Origin: Candidatus Termititenax aidoneus
GTDB taxonomy: Bacteria; Margulisbacteria; Termititenacia; Termititenacales; Termititenacaceae
Assembly: GCA_003864455.1 (NCBI GenBank)
Contig: BGZN01000004.1
Coordinates: forward strand, 3,125 to 67,124
DNA length: 64,000 bases
Direction: 5' to 3'
Made by a program: the position numbers and the translations under genes. How positions within the stretch are numbered: the stretch's first letter is position 1; the number at the start of each line of letters is the position of its first letter. The notes under the pieces are model-generated. The model worked only from the letters and a program-made list of their open reading frames with translations. It was not told the origin of the DNA and searched no databases. Shown one piece after another: positions 19,102 to 63,106 of this stretch.

Positions 19102-20210
19102 TGACTACACAAACCGTAAAATTAGGCGAGGTGTGCGAGATAAACAGAGCGTCAATCGGTAAGGATTACGCTTTTGATAGCATTGAATACCTTGATACTT
19201 CCTCGGTAACGAGCGGCACTTTTTCTGAAACTGAACATTTGAATTTGGCTGACGCACCAAGCAGAGCAAAACGCATTGTCCAAAACAACGACATTGTGAT
19301 TTCAACAGTTCGTCCAAATTTAAGGCATTTCGGCATTATTCAAAACGCCAAACCCAATATGGTTGTTTCAACAGGTTTTGCTGTTTTAACAATTGACGAA
19401 AGCAAAGCAGATTACAGTTATATTTATTATCTCCTTACAAAAGACGACATAGTAGATTATTTATCAGCAGTCGCCGACCAAGCAGTTAGCACATATCCCG
19501 CATTCAATCCCTCTGTCTTGGTAAACCTTGACCTCTCCCTTCCTCCTCTCCCAGAGCAGCAGCGCGTAGCGGGGATTTTGGGCAGTTTGGACGAAAAAAT
19601 CGAAAACAACCGCACCCTCGTCCGCACCACCGAAGCCCTCGCCCGCACCATCTTCAAAAAACACATCGCCGCAAATGAGGAAAACAAGGGGTGGGAAACG
19701 GTAAAATTAGGTGATGTTTGCGAAGTTTTTATCGGTGGAGATGCTCATAAATATGACATAGTAAAGCAATCTGATAAAACTCATAACGTACCAGTATTTT
19801 CCAATGGCATTGTCAATGAAGGACTTTACGGTTATACAAAAAACGCAGAAGTAAAGGCGGGTTCGGTGACAGTCAGTGCCAGAGGAACTGTTGGTTTTAT
19901 AAAGCTACGAGATACTGATTTTGTTCCTATTGTCCGTTTGATTGCGGTTATTCCAAAAGAAGACGATGTTAGCGGCTATTTTCTTGAAGCAGTTTTACAA
20001 AAAGAAACAATTAACGCAAGTGGGTCAAGCCAACAACAAATAACGGCACCAATGATTAAAAACCTTAGAATCAAACTCCCTCCCGCCGCCGTCTTGCAAT
20101 CGTTCGATGCCGTCGTAGAGCCATTGTTTGCCGAAATCGGCTTTCTCACCCGCGAAAACCAAACCCTCGCCGCCACCCGCGACAAACTTTTAAGGAAACT
20201 AATTAAATGA
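19101..20210 (+). CDS. hsdS: type I restriction-modification system specificity subunit
   Basis: Two target-recognition domains separated by conserved central (LPPLPEQQRVAGILGSLDEKI) and C-terminal (LPPAAVLQSF...LFAEIGFLTRENQTLAATRDKLLRKLIK) repeats. Start overlaps the hsdM stop. Confidence 0.85.
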   Translation: MTTQTVKLGEVCEINRASIGKDYAFDSIEYLDTSSVTSGTFSETEHLNLADAPSRAKRIVQNNDIVISTVRPNLRHFGIIQNAKPNMVVSTGFAVLTIDESKADYSYIYYLLTKDDIVDYLSAVADQAVSTYPAFNPSVLVNLDLSLPPLPEQQRVAGILGSLDEKIENNRTLVRTTEALARTIFKKHIAANEENKGWETVKLGDVCEVFIGGDAHKYDIVKQSDKTHNVPVFSNGIVNEGLYGYTKNAEVKAGSVTVSARGTVGFIKLRDTDFVPIVRLIAVIPKEDDVSGYFLEAVLQKETINASGSSQQQITAPMIKNLRIKLPPAAVLQSFDAVVEPLFAEIGFLTRENQTLAATRDKLLRKLIK

Positions 20211-22363
20211 GTATGCTAACTAAAATTACAGATTACACTCACAAGTCTTTCAAGAAGTTCACGAACCCACCTGACTTAGAGTTCAGACAAAAAAACATCG
20301 TCTTTGGCTATAATGGCAAAGGCAAAAGTGCTTTTGCTCTCGGTGTTAAAGCGGAATTTCTGAAAGATGCGTCAAAAACCGACGCCCATTTTCGTTTGTT
20401 TAATAAGGAATACATAGGCAAGGATTTAATGCTTGAAAATAGCAATGGAAAACTGAAAGGAGTTAAAGCAAATTTCAGCGAAAAAGATGTAACTGCCGAA
20501 ACCAGAATAAAGGAGTTGGAATCTGAAATTGTTAAGCCAGAAGATATTAAAAAACAAGAAGAGGAAATTCTAAAAATAAGGAAAGATGCAAGAAAAGAAG
20601 TTGATAGTATTCACGACAGGAAAAAAGGTAAAGCCAGAATTGCGAAAAAAGAACAGAGTAAACCTGTTGAAGATATAATTAAACTTTACGAAAGCGACTA
20701 TACGGAAGCATACAAAATTGAAACAGATGATGAAAAGTTACTAAAAACAACAGGCGACGACTCAATCTCGAAAGAAATAGAGAAATTTGAAAGTTTGCAA
20801 AATCTAACTTTCACAACTTATTCAGAGACAGAAATAAACGAATTAAAAGCCATTTTTGAGGAAAAATTTGGCGAAGATGTTGAAATTCCGGCAAATGAAA
20901 TTGTGAATTGGATGTCACAAGGTTTGACTTTGCATAAAGATGGCGACAGTTGCAAAATGTGTGGCGGGAAATTGGATTATCAGTCGGTAAAAACGAAGAT
21001 AGAACAATACAAAGACAACAGAAAACATCAAGCGATTGAGAAATTAAAATCTTTCCAAACTAAACTGAAAAAATCCTCTGATGAGATAGAGAGTATCGCA
21101 AAACAAGAAAAAACCTATTCCGCAATTATTGGGGAATCGGTCAAAGAATCATTTCAAAATATAATTGGAAGCAAAACCTCGTTTGAAGAATTAGACAAAT
21201 CATTGCAAGCGAAGATTGAAGACATCTTATCTTCAAATAGTTTTGATTTTGATAAATTGAAATCTGTTTCTGAATCAATTAAAACAGAAATTGAGAGAAC
21301 ACAGAGGGAGAAAAGCCAACAATTAACCACCTTGCGAAACAAACAAAGCAATTTAGAAACATTGGTCAAAGGTTCAATCGGTTTAGAAGTCAAAAATTCT
21401 CAAACCATCAAAGATAAACTGGCAGAGATTAAGAAAAAAGAAGATGATTTGAAGAAAGCTAAAGATAAAAACACTGAAACTCAAGGAGAAATTCAAAAAC
21501 TGAAAACTTCTAAAAGCCCGACCAAAGATTTTGCAGAGTTTGTATCTCAAATTTTGCAAGACATCAACATCTCGCTGAAAGTTGAAGTAGAAGCGACAGA
21601 CAATAACTACATAATCAAAAGTTCACACGAAGAGGTATTACTTACCATAAGCGACATCAGCGAAGGTGAGAAAAACTTGTTGGCTTTGTTATTCTTTTAC
21701 TACGAACTTTTTAATGATAATAAACAGACCGAAGTCAAAACCGATATTGAGTTGGTTATTGTTGACGACCCCATTTCAAGTATGGACGACGCAAACAAGT
21801 TTTATATTTTGGAATTGATGAAAAACATTTTGAATTTAGAATCGCAACAAGTATTTGTTCTAACTCATAGTTGGGACGATTTCTGCAATCTTTCTTATGG
21901 AAGAAAAACAGGTGAAGCAACCTCAAAGTTTTCGACTATTGAAATCAGAAAGAATAACGGAAAAAGTTATTTAGAAAAAGTTGGAAACATTGAAAAACCA
22001 TATAAGCACTTATTCAAAGAACTCTACGATTTTTCGCAGAAGTCAGAAAAAGATATTGGAACTGATTGTGAAATCTACCATTTTCCGAATGTGATGAGGA
22101 GAGTTTTTGAAGAATGGTATAGTTTTAAGATTGGGAAAGATTTGAATTTAACAAGTAATCAACTTGACCGTCTGGCAAATGATTTTGCTATAACCGATAC
22201 AAATAAAAAAACAAAATTAGGAATGCTACTCAAAGTTTGCAACATTCTTTCTCATTCAATCAACACAACAAAAAACCCGCAAGAAATTCATCAATCATCA
22301 AAATTTTTGATGAAATTGATTGAAGACAACGATAGATTACATTTTAATTCAATGAAGGGATAA
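20207..22363 (+). CDS. RloC/PrrC-like anticodon-nuclease candidate (ABC/SMC-type ATPase with coiled-coil and CxxC insert)
   Basis: Walker A GYNGKGKSAF; a long Glu/Lys-rich coiled coil containing CKMCGG (zinc-hook-like); Walker B/D-loop IVDDPISSMDD and H-loop LTHSWDD; C-terminal MRRVFEEW...NILSHS fits the PrrC anticodon-nuclease R-x3-E...H motif. Located between hsdS and hsdR, as prrC is. Confidence 0.55.
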   Translation: MSMLTKITDYTHKSFKKFTNPPDLEFRQKNIVFGYNGKGKSAFALGVKAEFLKDASKTDAHFRLFNKEYIGKDLMLENSNGKLKGVKANFSEKDVTAETRIKELESEIVKPEDIKKQEEEILKIRKDARKEVDSIHDRKKGKARIAKKEQSKPVEDIIKLYESDYTEAYKIETDDEKLLKTTGDDSISKEIEKFESLQNLTFTTYSETEINELKAIFEEKFGEDVEIPANEIVNWMSQGLTLHKDGDSCKMCGGKLDYQSVKTKIEQYKDNRKHQAIEKLKSFQTKLKKSSDEIESIAKQEKTYSAIIGESVKESFQNIIGSKTSFEELDKSLQAKIEDILSSNSFDFDKLKSVSESIKTEIERTQREKSQQLTTLRNKQSNLETLVKGSIGLEVKNSQTIKDKLAEIKKKEDDLKKAKDKNTETQGEIQKLKTSKSPTKDFAEFVSQILQDINISLKVEVEATDNNYIIKSSHEEVLLTISDISEGEKNLLALLFFYYELFNDNKQTEVKTDIELVIVDDPISSMDDANKFYILELMKNILNLESQQVFVLTHSWDDFCNLSYGRKTGEATSKFSTIEIRKNNGKSYLEKVGNIEKPYKHLFKELYDFSQKSEKDIGTDCEIYHFPNVMRRVFEEWYSFKIGKDLNLTSNQLDRLANDFAITDTNKKTKLGMLLKVCNILSHSINTTKNPQEIHQSSKFLMKLIEDNDRLHFNSMKG

Positions 22364-22365
22364 CT

Positions 22366-25300
22366 ATGAATACAATCTTAAACGAAGACCAAATAGAACA
22401 AATGACGCTGGAGATTTTCGGCGAATTGGGCTGGACTGTAAAGCACGGCGCACAAATCAGCCGCGATGCCGACCTTTACGCTCCACTGCCGGATGGTGCG
22501 ACCACTTCCGCCGAGCGTGATTTTGGCGATGTGGTGCTGCGTGGTCGCTTGGAGCAAAAAATCCGCGAAATCAACCCGTGGCTGCCGAGCGAAAAGTTGG
22601 ACGAGGTGTTGCGCAAAATCACCCGCACACACGGCGCAAACGACATTGACAACAACCGCCAGTTTCACCACCTTTTGACCGAAGGTGTGGACACCGAATA
22701 CCGCGACGGCGGCGAAGTAAAAACCCGCAAAGTGTTTTTTGTGGATTTTCAACAACCCGAAAACAACGACTTTCTCGCTGTCAACCAACTGACCGTGATT
22801 CAGGACGGCGTCAACAAACGCCCCGACATTGTGCTGTTTGTCAACGGCTTGCCCCTCGGTGTAATTGAACTCAAAAACGCCGCCGATGCCACCGCCGACC
22901 TTTCCGCCGCTTACAACCAAATCCAAACTTACAGGGCAAAAATCTCAAATCTGTTCCGTTTCAACGAACTCTGCGTGATTTCCGACGGACTTGACGCAAA
23001 AATCGGCACTTTTTCCGCCCCCGAAAACCGCTTTACCGCTTGGAAAACCATTAACGGCGAAGAAATACAGCGCAGCGTGCAGATTGACACGCTGACACGC
23101 GGAGTGTTTGAAAAATCGCGTGTTTTGGACATTATCAAAAACTTCATCGTCTTTGAACGCGACGACACCAACTACATCAAAAAACTTGCCGCCTATCATC
23201 AGTATTGGGTGGTGAATAAAGCGCTAGCGACGACCACGCAGGCAATCGCAGGCGACCATCGCGCCGGTGTCGTCTGGCATACGCAAGGCAGCGGCAAGTC
23301 GCTTTCTATGGTGTTTTATGCCGGTAAGCTGATTGCGACGAGCGAACTGCACAACCCGACCCTCGTCATCGTTACCGACCGCAACGACCTCGACGGGCAA
23401 CTTTACAGCACTTTTCATAACTGTGCCGATTTGCTCCGTCAAACGCCCGTGCAAGCCACGAGCCGTGCCGATTTGAAGGACAAACTCAACCGCGAAGCCG
23501 GCGGAGTGATTTTTACTACCATTCAAAAGTTTGAAGAAAGCAACGAAGCAATTTCTGGGCGTTCAAATATCATCGTCATTGCTGACGAGGCGCACCGCTC
23601 GCAATACGGGCTGAAAGCGAGAGTTGGGCGTGACGGCGAGGTGGCGTATGGTGCGGCAAAATATATGCGCGACACGCTGCCCAACGCTTCGTATATCGGC
23701 TTTACCGGCACGCCGATTGAACTTGACGACCGCTCCACGCCGGCGGTGTTTGGCGATTATATTGATATTTACGATGTGGCGCGTGCGGTAGAAGACGGCG
23801 CAACAGTGCCGATTTATTACGAATCACGCTTGGTTGATTTGGGATTCGACGATGAGACGAAAAAGTGGATGGACGAAGAAGTTGACGCGCTTTTTGAAGA
23901 TGTGGAAATGAGTAAGAGCGAGCAACTGAAAGCCGAATTTGCCCAGAAAGAAGCCATTGTCGGCAACCGCGAGCGCGTGAAGTTGATAGCCCGTGACATT
24001 GTGGAGCATTTTGAAAAACGCGAGGAAGTTTTCGCCGGCAAGGGAATGATTGTGGCAATGAGCCGTCAAATTGCGGCGTCGCTTTATGAGAAAATTATCG
24101 CCCTGCGTCCCGACTGGCACAGTGACGAGGTAACTTCCGGCGCACTCAAATGCGTTATCACCGGCGCGTCGAGCGACCCGGCGAATTTGCAAAAACATAT
24201 CCGCAGCAAACCCGACCGCGTGATTGTGGAGAAACGCTTCAAAGACCCGAAAAGCGACCTGAAACTCGTGATAGTGTGCGATATGTGGCTGACCGGTTTT
24301 GATGTGCCGCCGCTTCACACGATGTATCTTGATAAACCGCTGAAAATGCACAATTTGATGCAGGCAATTGCCCGCGTGAACCGCGTTTATCCCGACAAAG
24401 TCGGCGGGCTGGTGGTGGATTATCTCGGCGTGGCGGGAGCGCTGCGCGATGCGATGGCGGTTTATGCTAAATCCGGCGGAACTGGGACGCAAACGGTTGA
24501 TGTTGAGGCGGCAGTGGTGGAAATGAACCGCCGCGTGGAAGTGGTGCGCGATTTGTTCCACGGCTTTGATTATGCGGCGTTTTTCACCGGCTCGGCTGGG
24601 AAAAAATTAGAAATAATGCTGGACGCCGAAGAGTTTATCTTGGGTAAAGTGGAAGACGGCGAAGCGCGCGTCTGAAACGCGAAGTTCACGGACTCTACAA
24701 GGCATTTTCGCTCGCAATGCCGCAACCCGACGCACTCGCAATTCGTGAAGAAGTGGCATTTTTCCAAGCAGTGAAAGCCCGCCTGACCAAAGCAGGTGAA
24801 ACCGGAAAATTAGACAAGGACTACAAAATACAGTTGCAACAGATTGTGGACAAAGCGATTCAACCGCTCGGCATTGTGGACGTGCTTGAAGCGGCGGGGG
24901 TTGAAAAACGCGAACTGCCAATGCTCTCAGAAGAGTTTTTGGCGGAAATCCGCAATTATAAGCGCAAAAGTTTGGCAGTCAGAGCATTGGAAAAACTGCT
25001 TGCTGACCAAATCCGCGCCGGGTTTGCTCACAACGCCATCAAGAGCGAACAATTCAGCGAACTGATTAAAAAGGCATTAGACCGCTACAAAAACGGCACT
25101 ATCGAAGCGGCGCAAATCATTGAGGAGTTGATAGACATTGCCCGCAAATTGAAGGCAAACATAGAAAATCGCCCCGCCGATATGACCGATGACGAAATCG
25201 CCTTTTACGATGCCCTCGCCGACAACGGCTCCGCCCGCGAAGTCCTCGGCGATGAACAACTCCGCGAAATCGCCCGCTATCTCGTGGAAAAAGTCCGCAA

Positions 25301-25469
25301 AAACATCACGACCGATTGGAGCGTGAGAGAAAGTGCAAGAGCGCAGTTGAAATACGAAGTTCGCGTAGCGCTGAACAAATTCGGCTACCCGCCGGATAAA
25401 CAAGCCATCGCCACAGAGCGCGTGCTGCAACAAGCCGAAGTGTTAGGCAATCAGGTTTCAGAGCAGTAA
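22366..25469 (+). pseudogene. hsdR: type I restriction enzyme R subunit, interrupted by a frameshift near 24655-24675
   Basis: 22366-24675 encodes the N-terminal, helicase and motor domains (DEAH-like IVIADEAHRSQ). The C-terminal domain continues in another frame from about 24661 (LKREVHGLYKAFSLAMPQPDALAIREEVAFFQAVKA ... to 25469). The junction lies in a gcgcgcg run. Confidence 0.8.
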
Positions 25470-35115: not shown

Positions 35116-35190
35116 AAATTAAAATACAAAATAAAAATAATTTACAGAAAATTTTCAACAAAAAATCCAACGGCAAAATACATTAAGAAA

Positions 35191-35600
35191 TTTCGATGCA
35201 TTTTACAGGTATATTTTATCGATAAGCGGGTAATTACTGTTTTGTCAGTAGATGATTTTTGAGGAAGTAAAAATATTTGTTTATGCTTACGCGCGGCAAA
35301 TATCTTTACTTGCGCTCGGCGGCTGAGTTTCGGACGGTGAGCTTGGGACGGTGAGCTTGTCGAACCGTCGAACCGTCAAAGCCATCGTAAAACGGTCATT
35401 TCGACATCTCGACTTCGCTCGATGACCACAGGCTCAATGACCGAGTAGGTTACGTTCGCTACGGGCAAAGATATTTGCCGCGCTATTTGTGAAAAAACGA
35501 AAAAATGGAGTTTTGTCATGAAAAAGTTTTTAAATTTAAGATCTGTTAATAATTGCCCCCCCCCCATTTTTGGCGTAGGTACGCTGAAAAGCTAAGTTTT
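35191..35600. repeat. copy A of a roughly 430-bp repeated intergenic element (conserved ends, variable inverted-repeat core, poly-C tract)
   Basis: 5' block ttcgatgcattttacaggtatattttatcgataagcgggtaattact and 3' block ggagttttgtcatgaaaaagtttttaaatttaagatctgttaataattgCCCCCCCCCCatttttggcgtaggtacgc are shared with 43425-43870. Inner inverted repeat gcgcggcaaatatctttac / gcaaagatatttgccgcgc. Confidence 0.8.
35539..35575 (+). promoter_or_regulatory. candidate promoter with a C10 homopolymer in the -35/-10 spacer (TTGCCC-17-TAGGTA)
   Basis: ttgccc at 35553-35558 and taggta at 35576-35581 flank a spacer dominated by a C10 run (35556-35565). It is about 120 nt upstream of the 35698 ATG, and a good Shine-Dalgarno aggagg is present. 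Confidence 0.35.
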
Positions 35601-35697
35601 CTCCACTCTCTATTTTCTCCTAATAAACATCGAATGTTAAACGCCGCTGCCGCGGTTGTCTGAGATTTGGTGTTTAAAAAAAATTTAGGAGGAATTT

Positions 35698-37983
35698 ATG
35701 AGTATACAAACTATAAATAATAACGGAGTCGACTCTGGGGTTTTTGTCAAACAGCAGACCGGAAGAAGGGTTTCGGGAGAAGAGCGCAGGCTTAATGATG
35801 CTCTGTCCAGAATAAATCTAGACAGGGGCAACGATAATATTTATGGAGGATTTAATATCAGTAATGAAGAAATGCAGGCGGCGATTAGGCAAGACAGGGA
35901 GAATACGAGCGCCAATGTAGCCACTGTTTTTAAGAAACTTAACGAGACAGATGCGAGAATACTTTTCAATAGTTTTGACAGCGAGACTCAGGCACAATTG
36001 ATGAGCCATCTTTATGGAAGCAGAGGCAACGAAAATTTTACAAATATGATAAATAGCGAGCTGGACAATCCACAATCCAAACTTAATACCACCGTTTTAA
36101 ACGGTGAGCAAACCGGTGCTATTGCCGCCAGAGCTCTGACCAAAGGTTTGTTGGTTGCCGCCACTGGCCTCTTCGCCTCCGGCTCTACAGCCGAGACCGC
36201 TCAAAACCGTTTGACCAACTTATTGACAGGAGAGCATTCCGGAGTATTTCAAACGGCAATGCGTCAAGTGTATCAAAAATCTGAGCCCGGCAATGGTTTC
36301 ATTTCAAACTCTTCTAACAACGCCAGGGACGAGATCGAAAGATTTTTAAAGAAAACGGATAATCCAGAGCTGGCCGTTTTTAAAGCGGAGTTTACGCACA
36401 GCGGGATTACCAGCAGCGGCGCAGTCGTGCGCGCAGACAAGAACGCAGACGGCAAATATGATCTTAATGAATTGAAGAGTATGAATTCTGAACAAATCCT
36501 GCGTTTGAGTTGTACGGATGAACATTTTTTAGACAACATAGAAATACAAGGACCCAACGGCCCCTTAACGGGAGAGGCCAAAATCGACGCGCTGAAAAAT
36601 ATTTTCACGGAAATTGCGGCTAAAGAAAGAATGGACGGCGTGGCAATAGCTGTTTTTGTGGGAGCTACTTTGGCTACATTGACCGCTGGATTAGCGTCAG
36701 GCGTGGTAGCCACTGTGCTTGCGGTGGAAGGAACAGCTATGGCCACTCTTACCACAGGCGGCGTCATGACTGGCCGGCCAGCGCAGGCTTTGGAAAATAT
36801 CGCCAAGGAACAAATTGCTTCCGGCAATCCCCAGCAAATCCAAAGTTTTTTAGAAAGGTCAGACGCCTTTGGCAGATTGGGAGAAGACCGGACGAACAAC
36901 ATCATCGATAGTTTGGCTAACCTTCCGGACACCAAAATTGAAGCATTTTATACAGCGGTGGAAAATTTGCCGCCGGAACAACGCGCTAATATCTACGCAA
37001 GGATAGCCAAGGCTTTGCCCGACATGCAGCAAGGAAGGTATATAAATAATCCTAACAGCAGCAGAGGAGAACAAATAGAAAATAGGCGTTCAAACCCTAA
37101 CGGAGCGGCACGGCTTGTCAGGCTAAATCCAGAGAACAAATTTCAAGAGCTAAAGAGAATAATGGACACTGGAACCACAATTGAGCTAGCAAGTTACCTT
37201 GAAAAAAATCCGCCTACAAAAGCCCAAATCGCCCGCCTTACTCCGGACGATAAAGCTAAATTAGTCAATGCGGCCGAGGGATTGCAGAGTTTTGGTTCTC
37301 CTGCAGGAGATACAATAATTGCCTTAATGAGAGAAACACCAGACATGCAGTCTGAGATGCTTGCTGCTGTTCTAAATATGGATACTGCTACCAAAGAGCA
37401 GATAGTTACTACAACGCCGTCGCCCAAGAGCGAGACAATTGTTAGTGAACTGATTATTGAAGAAGAAGGTGGATTAACGAAAACCACCGATCAAGAGTCG
37501 GTTTTAAATTTATTCACCACAAACCAAAATGGAAACATCGAAGATGATAATTCAGCGCCAACAAATACAATTGAAGAAAACCAACAGCCCCCACCAGTCT
37601 CAGCAAACATAGCACGAAATGAACAAGCCGCTTCAAGCAGAAATTACCAAGTTTCTACTGTAACTTATCAAGATAACCCAAAATCCTCTGAGACGCAGTT
37701 TATTCCCAGGACTTACGGAATAACGCCACCATCTAATGGCAATGGAATTGAATATCTTAACAATGGCCAACGGATAATGACTGTGGGGAACGATACATTT
37801 GAGTTTGACAGCACATTCCAAGACAATAAAATAAAACTTGGTGGTCGGGAATATACTGTTCAAGGATCAAACCCAGTACATTTTAGAGACAATAATGGCA
37901 ACACTCACTATCTTGGCTGGGACGCTGCGACTAAAAGTTGGACTTATAGAAAAGAAGAAGGAGTGAACCTCAACGCCGCTTAA
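35698..37983 (+). CDS. large hypothetical protein (761 aa) with no signal peptide, a polar Asn/Ser/Thr-rich N-terminus and a central hydrophobic segment
   Basis: ORF with a strong ribosome-binding site; central hydrophobic stretch GVAIAVFVGATLATLTAGLASGVVATVLAVEGTAMATLTTGGVMTG (nt about 36637-36775); no recognizable catalytic motif. Confidence 0.5.
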   Translation: MSIQTINNNGVDSGVFVKQQTGRRVSGEERRLNDALSRINLDRGNDNIYGGFNISNEEMQAAIRQDRENTSANVATVFKKLNETDARILFNSFDSETQAQLMSHLYGSRGNENFTNMINSELDNPQSKLNTTVLNGEQTGAIAARALTKGLLVAATGLFASGSTAETAQNRLTNLLTGEHSGVFQTAMRQVYQKSEPGNGFISNSSNNARDEIERFLKKTDNPELAVFKAEFTHSGITSSGAVVRADKNADGKYDLNELKSMNSEQILRLSCTDEHFLDNIEIQGPNGPLTGEAKIDALKNIFTEIAAKERMDGVAIAVFVGATLATLTAGLASGVVATVLAVEGTAMATLTTGGVMTGRPAQALENIAKEQIASGNPQQIQSFLERSDAFGRLGEDRTNNIIDSLANLPDTKIEAFYTAVENLPPEQRANIYARIAKALPDMQQGRYINNPNSSRGEQIENRRSNPNGAARLVRLNPENKFQELKRIMDTGTTIELASYLEKNPPTKAQIARLTPDDKAKLVNAAEGLQSFGSPAGDTIIALMRETPDMQSEMLAAVLNMDTATKEQIVTTTPSPKSETIVSELIIEEEGGLTKTTDQESVLNLFTTNQNGNIEDDNSAPTNTIEENQQPPPVSANIARNEQAASSRNYQVSTVTYQDNPKSSETQFIPRTYGITPPSNGNGIEYLNNGQRIMTVGNDTFEFDSTFQDNKIKLGGREYTVQGSNPVHFRDNNGNTHYLGWDAATKSWTYRKEEGVNLNAA

Positions 37984-40292: not shown

Positions 40293-41453
40293 GTGAATTT
40301 GTGGCCAAAAATTAGCGGATTTCTTTGTTTGCTGTCCGCGTTTGCCCTGGCCTCATTTCCGGTTGATCTTTTGGACAAAACTTCCGGTCTAGCCGTCCTG
40401 AGCTGCGGCGGAGCAGGAGCGGCGCGTACCGACGGCGTCGGCGCGGCTTACTGGAATCCGGCGGGGTTGGCTTTTTCCGGCAAAAGCGGCTTTGACCTGA
40501 CCTATTATCAAAAACTGGGTTTCGTGAATCACTCTTCACTGGACGCCGTGCTGCTGCTCGGCGGCGACATCTTGCCGCTCGGTTTCAATCTGGTGCAGGA
40601 GGGCATTAACAGTATTCCGCGCACCAGCTCGGCCGGCGGACTGCCGGTGGAAGAAGGCTCTTTCGCCGACGAGTACCGCTTTATTAATTTTTCTACAGCT
40701 TTTCGCCTCGATCACGGACTGTACGGCGGCCTCAATTACAAAATCATTTCTCATACTATCGACAAATACCGCGCCGAAGGCTTTGCTGTCGATCTGGGTT
40801 TAATCCAGATCATGAGCCAAAACTTGACGCTGGGCGCGACTTTTCGCAATCTTTTTTCCGCGCTGGACTGGACTACCGGTTTGCAGGAATATCTGGCGCG
40901 CAAATTGACCGCCGGAGTTGCCTATCATCTGCCGCTGGCCGATTTTGAAAATTATTTGTACGCCGATCTCGACATATACAGCGAAGAAGAGCGCGGCTGG
41001 GCGCTGGGCGCGGAGTCCTGGCTGCTGAAAAATGTTTTCTGTCTGCGCGGCGGCTACAACAGCGGCCAAGAATTCACGCTCGGCACCGGGCTGCGTTACA
41101 ATGATTTTCACTGCGATCTAGCTCTGCTTTTCAATCCGGACAAAGTGGAAATAGACAATTCTTTTTTGTTCGGGCTGGGCTTTGATTTTCAACTGCCGCG
41201 CAATTCCGCGGCGCGCGCCGTCAGCGACGCCAGTTTTCAGCCGGAAATCAGCGTATTTCGTAAACGCATTATTGTCAGCGATTTGCAGCCGGAGAAAATT
41301 CAAGAAATCGCCGTGCTTGATCCTGCTGACAATGTGCTTTCCCTGCCGGTCCGCAAAACTATTGAAATTCCGGCGCCGGCCACCGGCAATTACACGCTTT
41401 TTTTCCAACTCAAAAATGAAAAAATCATTAAACAAACCGTCCTGGTTGAGTAA
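40293..41453 (+). CDS. outer-membrane beta-barrel protein, UPF0164/PorV-like family (putative)
   Basis: Signal peptide; GAGAARTDGVGAAYWNPAGLA resembles the conserved N-terminal motif of PorV/UPF0164 OMPs; amphipathic beta-strands. Confidence 0.35.
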   Translation: MNLWPKISGFLCLLSAFALASFPVDLLDKTSGLAVLSCGGAGAARTDGVGAAYWNPAGLAFSGKSGFDLTYYQKLGFVNHSSLDAVLLLGGDILPLGFNLVQEGINSIPRTSSAGGLPVEEGSFADEYRFINFSTAFRLDHGLYGGLNYKIISHTIDKYRAEGFAVDLGLIQIMSQNLTLGATFRNLFSALDWTTGLQEYLARKLTAGVAYHLPLADFENYLYADLDIYSEEERGWALGAESWLLKNVFCLRGGYNSGQEFTLGTGLRYNDFHCDLALLFNPDKVEIDNSFLFGLGFDFQLPRNSAARAVSDASFQPEISVFRKRIIVSDLQPEKIQEIAVLDPADNVLSLPVRKTIEIPAPATGNYTLFFQLKNEKIIKQTVLVE

Positions 41454-43279: not shown

Positions 43280-43424
43280 TTTGGTTTTTCCTTAAATGTA
43301 TAAAATTTCAAAAAAAAGCAGGTTATTTTACCTTATTTTTACTTGCCTTGTCAAACTCACCGTCAATTTTTGGCGTATTTAGGCAACTTTTTGATAAATG
43401 AATTAGTAAAAAACAACAACAAAA

Positions 43425-43870
43425 TTCGATGCATTTCACAGGTATATTTTCTCGATAAGTGGGTAATTACTTTTGTGTAAGTTTGTGAGCAGGTGAACTC
43501 TTTTAGAGCGAATATGTTTGCTTGCACGCGGAGAATATCTTTACCTGCGCGCGTGGTGGCTTCTCACTTAACTTCGCAGCCACGCTGCTTGTTAAGTTCG
43601 AACCAGACGCGCTCCGGCAAAATATTCTCCGCGCTTAACTTAAAGTAAACATGTGATTTTAGGCAGTGAAAATATTTGCTTCAAGCGGCCGTAACCTTCA
43701 GTGCTATGCCGTGGCCGCGGAAGTAAATATTTTCACTGCCGGAAAATTAGATGTGTTTTTTGAAAAATTTGTACAAAACAAAAAACGGAGTTTTGTCATG
43801 AAAAAATTTTTAAATTTAAGATCTGTTAATAGTTGCCCCCCTCCCCCCCCATTTTTCGTGTAGGCACGCG
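43425..43870. repeat. copy B of the repeated intergenic element (C6-T-C8 tract)
   Basis: Shares its end blocks with 35191-35600. Nested inverted repeats gcgcggagaatatcttt/aaaatattctccgcgc and cagtgaaaatatttgcttcaagcggccg/cggccgcggaagtaaatattttcactg. Contains a REP-like palindrome also seen at 1535 and 50632. Confidence 0.8.
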
Positions 43871-43983
43871 GAAAATCTAGAGTTTTTCACAAACGCGCTA
43901 AACAATAAAACCCTGTCCGGCTAAAGCCGGTTCGGGGTTTTTTGCGTTTGTGATAAATCTAAAAAAGAAAGGGGGTGTTTTTT

Positions 43984-44319
43984 ATGGTCGATTTCAATCC
44001 TAATTTTCAGATTAGTGGGTTTAAGCCAAAATTTGACTTAAACGAAGTCAAATTTGGGGGCAATCATTCTGACAGCACCAAAAAGTTTGCCAATAATGTG
44101 CATCAGAAAATTCAAGACAGCTTTGCCGAACAGGACATTAAGGCAAAAGTAGTTGTTAGCGCCGGATTTAAAGATGGACAACCAATACTTTACATAACGG
44201 CATATGACAATGGCAAACCTGTAATTAAGGACGCTGAAAACGCAATACAGAACAATTTGCCTGACGGCGCTTCTTTGACTGTCTATGACCACAAAGCTGA
44301 AATTCTTTTGCGTGAATAA
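43984..44319 (+). CDS. hypothetical small protein (111 aa)
   Basis: ORF with ribosome-binding site aaagggggtg, followed by a terminator. Confidence 0.4.
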   Translation: MVDFNPNFQISGFKPKFDLNEVKFGGNHSDSTKKFANNVHQKIQDSFAEQDIKAKVVVSAGFKDGQPILYITAYDNGKPVIKDAENAIQNNLPDGASLTVYDHKAEILLRE

Positions 44320-44372: not shown

Positions 44373-44437
44373 CTTGACAATATTTACCACTCGTCATATA
44401 ATTAGTCCAGTTAGTTTAGTTTACTAGGAGCACAGCC

Positions 44438-45156: not shown

Positions 45157-45429
45157 CTACTCGTAATGCGACCACATTCTGATAATGCGCACATAATGCT
45201 CGCTGGCGTGTACCGAATAAACCAAGCGATGTTTTATATTTATTCTCCTGGAATATGCTCCAGCTAGATTGCCGCTCAATTTCTCATAAGGCGGCGGGAT
45301 TTGAAATGGATTTAGACGCAAAACATCAAGCAATTTTTGAGTACGGGATTTTAGTCCTGATTTACCAAGCAACTCGGCATCTTTAAGCGCTTGTTTGGTA
45401 AAAAGCAGTTCCCATACATCAGCTACCAC
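45157..45429 (-). CDS. Txe/YoeB-family toxin
   Basis: PF..P.YEKLSGNLAGAYSRRINIKHRLVYSV...W.HYE matches the YoeB consensus. Confidence 0.75.
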   Translation of the reverse strand: MVADVWELLFTKQALKDAELLGKSGLKSRTQKLLDVLRLNPFQIPPPYEKLSGNLAGAYSRRINIKHRLVYSVHASEHYVRIIRMWSHYE

Positions 45430-45683
45430 TTAAGGCTGCTTTCCTTGTGAAGTTTTTTCTTTGGTGCGTTTAAGCCTTGGACAATCGATTGCTCCAGGTT
45501 TGGAATGCTTGTTAAATACTCCGTGTCATTTTGAGCAATTGGTTCAAAAGGAATTTTACCATAATTGATCACTTGATGATAAAACAAGACCGTGGCTGAT
45601 GCTACGGTAAGCCCGATATTCTCAAATATCTGCTGGGCTTTTTTCTTAACACTATCATCAACCCTTACGCTAACAGTAGCCAT
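45423..45683 (-). CDS. RelB/DinJ-family antitoxin
   Basis: MATVSVRVDDSVKKKAQQIFENIGLTVASA is the ribbon-helix-helix pattern of DinJ/RelB. Overlaps the start of the toxin gene. Confidence 0.7.
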   Translation of the reverse strand: MATVSVRVDDSVKKKAQQIFENIGLTVASATVLFYHQVINYGKIPFEPIAQNDTEYLTSIPNLEQSIVQGLNAPKKKLHKESSLKW

Positions 45684-50554: not shown

Positions 50555-50768
50555 AAGGCCACAATAATAGCATAAAATAGCCGCTCTAAGCATTTATAAA
50601 CTTGTCACTTCGGCCGCTAAAGCGGCCTTGTGGCTCTCACTTAACTTCGCGGCGGCGCCGCTTGTTAAGTTCGAGTGCGCGGAAGAGGACGACTGCGCCG
50701 GCTACCGCCGGCTTGTGGCCCTAATTTTTTTCTCTATACTTTTTACGTATAGTCATTTCAAACATATT

Positions 50769-63028: not shown

Positions 63029-63106
63029 AGCGCTAGATTAACATTTTGTTTTAAGCGCGGCAAATATCTTTGCCGCGCTTTAACTACACTCCACAGAAAT
63101 TAGACA

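Follow-up and report, generated by a model that had tools for sequence, protein, structure and literature searches.

Poly-C tracts in a duplicated leader module of Candidatus Termititenax aidoneus as the possible proline-codon core of a leader-peptide attenuator

Ribosomes that pause on polyproline become uncoupled from RNA polymerase at downstream terminators, and the proline-codon leader open reading frames (ORFs) mgtL and mgtP of Salmonella regulate by such pausing (PMC5021804). Judging from the sequences compared here, these ORFs appear to be the closest described counterparts of two poly-C tracts that belong to no sequence-defined family, and whose likeness to the C-stretches of certain promoters seems superficial. 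The tracts lie in a 64,000-nucleotide stretch of DNA, referred to below as the window (contig BGZN01000004.1, positions 3,125 to 67,124 of the forward strand), from Candidatus Termititenax aidoneus, which we take to be an uncultured Margulisbacteria symbiont of the termite gut. One tract, a run of ten cytosines, is located upstream of a gene for an orphan protein of 761 amino acids (aa) and is referred to as copy A. The other, copy B, is an interrupted run upstream of a gene for a 111-aa orphan protein. An earlier note on this DNA placed the C10 run in a promoter spacer. Most likely, it sits instead in a transcribed leader as the proline codons of a small upstream ORF. More specifically, we put the probability that the tract is the proline-codon core of a polyproline leader-peptide attenuator at roughly 40%. 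The module that carries the tract appears, in Ca. Termititenax and in a related metagenome-assembled genome (MAG), to precede two or more orphan genes that are unrelated and evolve fast.

The resemblance to mgtL (the mgtA leader) and mgtP (the mgtCBR leader), and also to hisL and pyrL, is one of architecture: each has a short leader ORF with consecutive regulatory codons, here three to five proline codons. In mgtL and mgtP, RNA structures that follow the ORF decide on read-through or ribosome access, and both polyproline pausing and elongation factor P (EF-P) feed into the decision (PMC5021804); a similar arrangement is proposed here. In contrast, there is no sequence similarity to the Salmonella leaders, and the proline run is a pure homopolymer of C10 to C15 rather than a mixture of CCN codons. 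One module also appears to be fused to two different devices, either a terminator or a stem that pairs with the Shine-Dalgarno (SD) sequence. Moreover, the genes concerned are orphans without any link to Mg2+, proline, or virulence, and translation of the leader is, in this case, part of the proposal.

Homopolymeric tracts associated with promoters provide a second comparison. In the Bordetella genes fim2, fim3, fimX, and fimN, a C-stretch lies within the promoter, and changes in its length alter transcript abundance (PMC1891110). As in the present locus, paralogues there share an upstream element with a long C tract that varies in length by paralogue and species, and a T-interrupted version (C9TC8) is among them (PMC1891110). 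Unlike the fim genes, the locus described here has no conserved −10 element at a usable distance (in three of the four copies compared, the spacers would be 22–23 nucleotides (nt) long), and it does possess a conserved ORF with an SD sequence and an ATG. G/C tracts in or beside the core promoter, with documented length heterogeneity, also occur at the tpr genes of Treponema pallidum and at opc and porA of Neisseria. These cases share with the present one a poly-G/C tract of at least 8 nt upstream of variable-protein genes in a host-associated bacterium, although the core-promoter position and the length heterogeneity are features of those other tracts. Finally, the tlpB gene of Helicobacter pylori reportedly carries a variable G-repeat in its 5′ untranslated region that is targeted by the small RNA (sRNA) RepG. 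The two cases would have in common a homopolymer in the leader (a transcribed one in tlpB) whose length tunes post-transcriptional regulation and not promoter spacing. The G-repeat of tlpB is said to be bound by a C/U-rich loop of the sRNA, whereas the present tract falls inside a putative ORF.

The poly-C tracts and the duplicated leader

Both tracts listed in the earlier note are confirmed on the plus strand, as an uninterrupted C10 at 35556..35565 in copy A and as C6-T-C8 (CCCCCCTCCCCCCCC) at 43836..43850 in copy B. No other run of G or C of at least 7 nt exists in the window. When the mononucleotides of the window are shuffled, 1.15 runs of at least 8 nt are obtained on average, and 7% of shuffles contain a run of at least 10 nt. 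The copy A tract is upstream of the start codon of the 761-aa gene (35698) and is separated from it by 132 nt.

The two tracts occupy the same position within a duplicated block of ~100 nt (35485–35600 vs. 43767–43886) that shows 86% identity. The leader module shared by the copies, at 35495..35600 in copy A and 43775..43886 in copy B (both plus strand), consists of an A-rich stretch, an SD-like motif, the start of a leader ORF, the C tract, and a hairpin referred to here as hairpin 1. After about 35600 and 43886, respectively, the two leaders diverge. Intergenic homology between the copies has a second part, an upstream block (block 1-2) located at 35175..35318 in copy A and at 43408..43553 in copy B, again on the plus strand. 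A 47-mer of this block, ~300 nt 5′ of the tract, hardly varies between the two window copies or in the other species compared, and the core, TCGATGCATTT..A.GTATATTTT.TCGATAAG.GGGTAATTACT, contains the −10-like hexamer TATATT. From its sequence, the block could be the true promoter, an operator, or an independent small transcription unit.

Palindromes resembling repetitive extragenic palindromes (REPs), with CGCGGCAAATATCTTT-type ends, are situated between the upstream block and the tract block. They belong to a REP-like or miniature inverted-repeat transposable element (MITE)-like family with termini CGCGGCAAATATCTTT... and ...AAAGATATTTGCCGCG and variable interiors, and different members are found in each copy. 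Sites in the window are at 35291–35483, 43527–43633, 43657–43745, and 63051–63079, with a partial match at 50630–50674; 7 occurrences of the motif were counted in the window vs. 0.55 expected. A minus-strand ORF that begins with ATG-G10 (35376–35567) has no conserved counterpart in copy B.

Orthologues of both leaders were obtained from a second genome, so that the comparison comprises four homologous sequences from two genomes. A homologue of the 111-aa protein (76% identical) occurs in a Margulisbacteria MAG, on a contig, L009, that also bears the copy B leader's orthologue; the same locus is represented by L010, an independent Logan contig. Contig L011 of the same metagenome, reached through P0004, which is related to the 761-aa protein at the C terminus, has the orthologue of the copy A upstream module. 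The entire module is present there, including block 1 (at about 370–500), palindromes (at about 478–556 and 575–690), the tract block, a long stem of the copy A type, and the SD sequence AGGAGG. In the orthologues, the tracts are uninterrupted C15 runs (102–116 in L009, 6–20 in L010, and 771–785 in L011), the lengths being, here as throughout, those of consensus assemblies.

Conservation between the two window copies is uneven. The 45 nt before the tract (35507–35551 vs. 43787–43831) contain one mismatch, with 0 such matches expected by chance, and the 35 nt after the tract contain 8 differing sites. Since the same 45-nt stretch differs at 9 of 43 sites between the two MAG copies, the sequences suggest recent gene conversion in T. 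aidoneus with a boundary that falls at the C tract. That the 45-mer is nearly identical in the window copies had also been considered as co-evolution with a trans-acting factor, which would have favored a promoter or operator, and this reading was withdrawn in view of the differences between the MAG copies.

The leader ORF of copy A spans 35518..35595 on the plus strand and encodes MKKFLNLRSVNNCPPPIFGVGTLKS, with its stop just 3′ of hairpin 1; the orthologue in L011 (733–861) is in the same frame. That of copy B (43798..43863, plus strand) encodes MKKFLNLRSVNSCPPPPPFFV and has its TAG stop within the hairpin 1 loop, and its orthologue in L009 (64–129) encodes MKKILNLRFVDSYPPPPPFFV. An SD-like GGAG is located at 35507..35510 (plus strand) in copy A, 7 nt before the leader ATG, and at 43787–43790 in copy B. 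All four sequences carry such a tetramer 7–8 nt before the ATG, namely GGAG in the two window copies and GGCG and GGGG in the orthologues; the common pattern is GGNG, at −8 to −11. They also share the start motif ATG AAA AA(A/G) (T/A)TT TT(A/G) AAT, after which the frame remains open through the tract. Stops abound in both of the alternative frames of this AT-rich stretch. No indels occur in the 39 nt before the tract, although they do occur 1–2 nt upstream of the ATG. The conserved peptide pattern is MKKFLN...C/Y-PPP(PP), in which about seven unconstrained codons are followed by a Cys or Tyr.

Within this ORF, the copy A tract is read as TG[C CCC CCC CCC], or Cys-Pro-Pro-Pro, and the copy B tract as TG[C CCC CCT CCC CCC CC]A, or Cys and five Pro, where brackets enclose the tract and the interrupting T produces a synonymous CCT. 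The leader peptides up to the end of the proline run are MKKFLNLRSVNNC-PPP (A), MKKFLNLRSVNSC-PPPPP (B), MKKILNLRFVDSY-PPPPP (L009), and MKKFLNSTFVFSY-PPPPP (L011). Their proline codons, three in A and five in each of the others, are CCC except for the CCT of copy B and a final CCA or CCG, the base that follows the tract (A or G) giving one or the other synonymous codon.

The post-tract frame is retained within both orthologous pairs. In copy B and L009, a tract of 15 nt is followed by FFV and by the same TAG stop in the hairpin loop. Between copy A and L011, five additional cytosines plus one extra L011 base immediately after the tract amount to a net change of 6, and both sequences read on as (I/V)FGVG.... 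Two observations, the 15-nt tract common to copy B and L009 and the indel that restores the frame between copy A and L011, speak for selection on tract length modulo 3 and against free drift.

The locus contains two features of leader-peptide attenuators: a short ORF in the 5′ leader that has a start codon and a ribosome-binding site and is conserved as an ORF, and a series of consecutive codons of the regulatory kind. A short upstream ORF had been mentioned in the earlier note as an alternative explanation, and it is the one that best fits the comparative data. The peptide ending quoted for it at that time (...PPPHFW) belongs to an overlapping TTG ORF at 35553, in the frame of a C11 tract, and not to the C10 ORF.

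Downstream structures and the proposed mechanism

Hairpin 1 is located at 35567..35590 in copy A (UUUUUGGCGU-AGGU-ACGCUGAAAA) and at 43852..43875 in copy B (UUUUUCGUGU-AGGC-ACGCGGAAAA), in both cases on the plus strand. In copy A, it includes G.U wobble pairs that form only in plus-strand RNA, which constitutes weak evidence that the region is transcribed. An apparent compensatory change in this hairpin, noted with three sequences, had no statistical support with four.

Farther downstream, the two types of leader carry different structures. In copy A, a long stem at 35614..35694 (plus strand), conserved in L011, allows UUCUCCUAA to pair with the SD sequence of the main gene, AGGAGG (35687–35692). 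Six one-sided changes separate the L011 stem from that of copy A, and pairing is kept each time. In copy B, the leader ORF and the 111-aa gene are separated by a strong hairpin that resembles an intrinsic terminator and has a U6 tail (43907..43943, plus strand). L009 retains this hairpin, with a compensatory change from C-G to U-A at the loop-closing pair. The SD sequence of the 111-aa gene, AGGGGG, follows this terminator. Since no promoter-like hexamers are seen in the 40 nt from the terminator to the 111-aa start codon, the gene must be reached by read-through.

The C run itself can also pair with an SD sequence. In the minimum free energy (MFE) folds of copy B and L009, it pairs with the G5 of the SD, with duplexes of −13.6 and −13.7 kcal/mol, respectively. 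This was rejected as a general function of the tract, as it is restricted to the B type; the corresponding value in the A type is −5.8 kcal/mol. Complementarity is observed across copies as well. For instance, the copy B tract (43836–43850) includes CCUCC, the exact complement of the GGAGG in the copy A SD (35687–35692), and the C run of copy A (35556–35565) is complementary to the GGGGG of copy B (43971–43975). The cross-duplexes amount to −9.5 and −12.9 kcal/mol, and this cross-complementarity of tracts and SDs is probably a coincidence.

The genes behind the leaders are the 761-aa orphan gene NO1_0417 (35698..37983, plus strand), whose product has a hydrophobic segment at residues 314–345, and the 111-aa orphan gene NO1_0424 (43984..44319, plus strand). 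The 761-aa sequence matches NO1_0417 of Candidatus Termititenax aidoneus with 100% identity. No function was obtained for either protein from Pfam, NCBIfam, a PDB sequence search, an AF2 model, or Foldseek. A full HMMER scan of 1.8 billion representatives with the 761-aa protein returned a match to its 50 C-terminal residues only, and a weak match (P0005) was set aside as an irrelevant eukaryotic coiled-coil protein. The predicted structure of the 111-aa protein is a generic alpha/beta sandwich without an informative neighbor.

Leaders and downstream genes have not been conserved to the same extent. Copy B and L009 are 88.5% identical in the leader (43775–43983), 83.9% identical in the 111-aa coding sequence, and 78% identical in the next intergenic region. 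Copy A and L011 align end to end in the leader, whereas the proteins downstream are essentially unrelated. Two genes (312 and 532 aa; L011 927–3491) take the place of the 761-aa gene (window 35698–37983) behind the leader, and similarity is confined to the last ~50 residues (53% identity). The leader being better conserved than the downstream genes in both pairs, the cassette is more stable than its cargo. In copy A, the cargo would appear to change, or to be replaced, much faster than the leader.

If the tract is indeed a run of proline codons in a leader-peptide attenuator, the system may operate as follows. Transcription would start upstream, perhaps in block 1, and yield a transcript that carries the leader ORF. 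A ribosome translating the ORF would have to cross three to five consecutive proline codons, most of them CCC, and would pause to an extent that depends on EF-P and prolyl-tRNA. The duration of the pause, together with the site at which the ribosome finally stops, would set whether the terminator (B type) or the SD-sequestering stem (A type) forms, and formation of either structure would in turn determine the level of orphan gene expression. The upstream promoter, leader translation, stalling, and coupling to the downstream structures are the parts of this scheme that we infer; the anatomy, its conservation in four copies, and the retained frame are read directly from the sequences.

Since the proline run is written as a pure run of C, slippage, either in the DNA or by +1 ribosomal movement on CCC-C, would give the leader a new frame and a new stop. 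When tract lengths were simulated, the three frames leaving the tract were found to stop at three places in every copy. The first ends at the TAG in the loop of hairpin 1 and is the current frame of copy B and L009. The second ends soon after hairpin 1 (35593, 43878, and L009 144), or later, inside the anti-SD arm, in L011 (859), and is the current frame of copy A and L011 in the assemblies. The third extends far downstream, into the loop of the B-type terminator (43922; L009 188) or, in the A type, to 35661 and L011 906, which are within or just past the anti-SD stem region. At C10 and C15, the runs have sufficient length to be prone to slippage in the DNA. CCC-C also promotes +1 ribosomal frameshifting, and CCC is the slowest proline codon (PMC8129111). 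Phase variation, if it occurs, would proceed through a shift of the leader ORF frame and not through promoter spacing. Of the more general claims made in the earlier note, those of a functional and slippage-prone tract hold up in part, as the run is kept in all four copies and differs (C10 vs. C15) between the copy A orthologues, while that of promoter-spacer switching is not supported.

One extension of the leader-peptide attenuator treats the homopolymer as a frame selector, with slippage toggling the attenuator through its three stop positions. Either a one-C slippage in the DNA, or +1 slippage of the ribosome when EF-P or m1G37 is limiting, would bring ribosomes into the long frame, where they would melt the terminator or the anti-SD stem and turn the orphan gene on. 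We regard this as a long shot. To our knowledge, the combination, an attenuator that is phase-variable or that senses translation fidelity, has not been described.

Several observations weigh against a translated proline leader. Substitutions before the tract, counted by hand in the four sequences, number 3 at the first, 6 at the second, and 4 at the third codon position, so that a coding-like bias is absent. A third-position bias that had been noted with three sequences (6 of 11 changes, p about 0.12) vanished when the fourth was added. As regulatory leader peptides are often unconstrained outside of their regulatory codons, the missing coding-like pattern is only weak evidence against the ORF. 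Residues 7–13 of the peptide are likewise free to vary, and the ORFs differ in length (25 aa in A, 42 in L011, 21 in B, and 21 in L009) and in the position of their stops. Retention of frame in two pairs is weak support, amounting to about 1-in-9 evidence at best, and the whole comparison involves only four sequences from two genomes. Among these, hairpin 1 is 95% paired, with two broken pairs in L011 and with covariation that is not significant against a shuffle control. Furthermore, no convincing alternative antiterminator pairing was found in the A or B leader, and nothing connects the downstream genes to proline or translation. A final point is the sigma-70-like pair TTGTCA-18-TAAGAT (35513..35542, plus strand; 43793–43822 in copy B), a weak candidate promoter and the only plus-strand match of its kind in the scan. 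It overlaps the leader ATG; were it the promoter, the ATG, which overlaps its −35, would not be transcribed.

Promoter, untranslated element, or neutral repeat

The hexamers on which the promoter-spacer claim was based are present in copy A (TTGCCC at 35553–35558 and TAGGTA at 35576–35581, with a 17-nt spacer), and copy B has TTGCCC and TAGGCA 22 nt apart. In this explanation, or in a variant modeled on Bordetella fim, a change in the number of C residues would switch transcription of the orphan gene, the tract lying between a −10 on its downstream side and, upstream, either a −35 or an activator site within the conserved 45-mer. The setting has some appeal, since the 45-mer lies directly before the tract, as the "fim box" does before the Bordetella C-stretch (PMC1891110). 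The tract measures 10 vs. 15 nt in the paralogues, and again 10 vs. 15 nt in the copy A orthologues, and the downstream genes, lineage-specific, fast-evolving, and in one case encoding a membrane-spanning segment, are of the contingency-locus type. The comparison of four sequences nevertheless leaves the claim unsupported. The proposed −35 is not conserved (TTGCCC in A and B, CTACCC in L009, and TTACCC in L011), and the proposed −10 reads TAGGTA in A and L009, TAGGCA in B, and TAGGTG in L011. A T at position 6, which sigma-70 −10 elements almost always have, is found in none of them, and the four sequences contain no other conserved TAnnnT at a fixed distance 3′ of the tract. With implied spacers of 17 (A), 22 (B), 22 (L009), and 23 nt (L011), three of the four copies would be permanently off. 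The supposed −10 also falls in the loop and 3′ arm of hairpin 1, the structure whose G.U pairs exist only in plus-strand RNA. In addition, the tracts of copy B and its orthologue are identical in length in spite of 12% divergence around them, and that of copy B is stabilized by its T. What a promoter of this lineage looks like can be seen at 44374–44402 (L009 643–671), where a perfect consensus, TTGACA-17-TATAAT, precedes a phd-PIN toxin-antitoxin (TA) pair; both of its hexamers are invariant in L009, while 7 of the 17 spacer bases have changed. Because these control hexamers stay invariant, canonical promoters can be said to exist and to behave as expected in this lineage, whereas the proposed one does not. 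Spacer-length switching is, in our estimation, decidedly unlikely. A shift in the reading frame of the main gene, which had also been raised, is excluded, since there are stops in all three frames between the tracts and the starts at 35698 and 43984.

Should TTGTCA-18-TAAGAT be a genuine promoter, transcripts would begin ~7 nt after TAAGAT (at about 35549 and 43829), and the tract, at about +7 to +22, would be an untranslated C run near the 5′ end of the mRNA. There it might pair as an anti-SD or, being rich in C, offer a landing site to Rho or some other protein that binds RNA, an option that we consider unlikely. The pair is at the same place in both copies, where it is the sole plus-strand sigma-70-like match in either intergenic region of 580–700 nt, and conservation of the module begins ~55 nt before the predicted transcription start site, in an A-rich stretch like an UP element. 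Conservation is lowest (61.5%) in the 13 nt that separate TAAGAT from the tract, the B and L009 folds have the C run paired with the G5 SD, and C-rich, G-poor RNA is a classic substrate of Rho (PMC5021804). A 9/12 match to consensus is, however, expected 1.0–1.6 times per region in shuffles, and the hexamers degrade in the orthologues, to TTTATA-18-TAAGAT in L009 (8/12) and TTTATA-18-CAACAT in L011 (7/12), whereas those of the control promoter hold. The SD pairing fails in the A type, which uses a local anti-SD instead, and so does not supply a common function. The conserved ATG, the GGNG, and the retention of frame are also left unexplained. The best-conserved promoter-like feature is instead the TATATT in the invariant core of block 1, ~300 nt further upstream and without a −35, and this block is a candidate for the site of the real promoter. 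The tract could, alternatively, have no function at all and be a homopolymer generated by slippage in a gene-converted intergenic repeat. Its exact length in the assemblies, C10 above all, would then perhaps be due in part to homopolymer errors in sequencing or assembling a genome from amplified DNA, the organism being uncultured. The 45-mer, with gene conversion ending at the tract, would be accounted for in this manner, the region is full of REP-like palindromes, and MAG assemblies break near the module (L009 and L010 begin within or beside it). Nor does any comparative statistic reach significance. Set against this are the maintenance of a C10–C15 run, with one interruption, in all four copies from two genomes whose flanking leaders have diverged by 12–20%, the absence of other G/C runs from the 64 kb, and the agreement of two different assemblies of the MAG locus on C15. 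A functionless tract is accordingly judged quite unlikely.

Searches for the element at the DNA level, and for known RNAs, did not identify relatives. DNA pattern scans with a 22-mer (genome contigs) and a 20-mer (metagenome and viral contigs), in collections that evidently lack the source genome, yielded only chance matches in AT-rich marine, phage, or unrelated contigs, and BLAST of the element against phages and plasmids gave nothing relevant. Look-ups of four window proteins by exact sequence produced no match. With the covariance models of Rfam 15, only tRNAs pass in the window as a whole. For the two intergenic regions, matches with E up to 10 were sub-threshold and due to chance, mainly microRNA-precursor models on the palindromes.

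Neighboring features and significance of the leader cassette

The genes that neighbor the two leaders are of a housekeeping type, including lipopolysaccharide (LPS) glycosyltransferases, an LptC-like protein, PgeF, GltX, a radical SAM enzyme, IspF, ApbE, and the valyl-tRNA synthetase ValRS. A second TA pair, YoeB/RelB (45157–45683), adjoins phd-PIN, both pairs are syntenic in L009, and the phd-PIN promoter is a useful calibration for promoter calls in the lineage. Elsewhere in the window, the R subunit of a type I restriction system is split into two ORFs (22366–24675 and 24717–25469) with a stop at about 24673. Its T1RH-like C-terminal domain is divided (profile positions 1–60 vs. 82–326), and no homopolymer is visible at the junction. 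An AAA_13 ATPase gene (20207–22363) lies between hsdS and hsdR. A 386-aa protein (40293–41453) matches the PorV/PorQ family (NCBIfam NF033709) at 89.8 bits against a cutoff of 90, a hint that a genome of the Margulisbacteria may encode an outer-membrane component like those of type IX secretion.

Long G/C tracts upstream of genes are usually annotated as promoter-type contingency loci, and the present case is a caution in this regard, as the orthologues argue here for a translated leader. If the attenuator is real, it would be new in that the regulatory proline run is a pure homopolymer and in that the cassette is reused before different output structures and orphan genes, with one cassette coupled to two outputs, a terminator and an SD-sequestering stem. 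Attenuation that senses proline or EF-P would then extend well beyond the enterobacteria. A candidate-phylum ectosymbiont, a member of the Margulisbacteria from the termite gut, would control rapidly evolving orphan proteins by means of a portable leader cassette.

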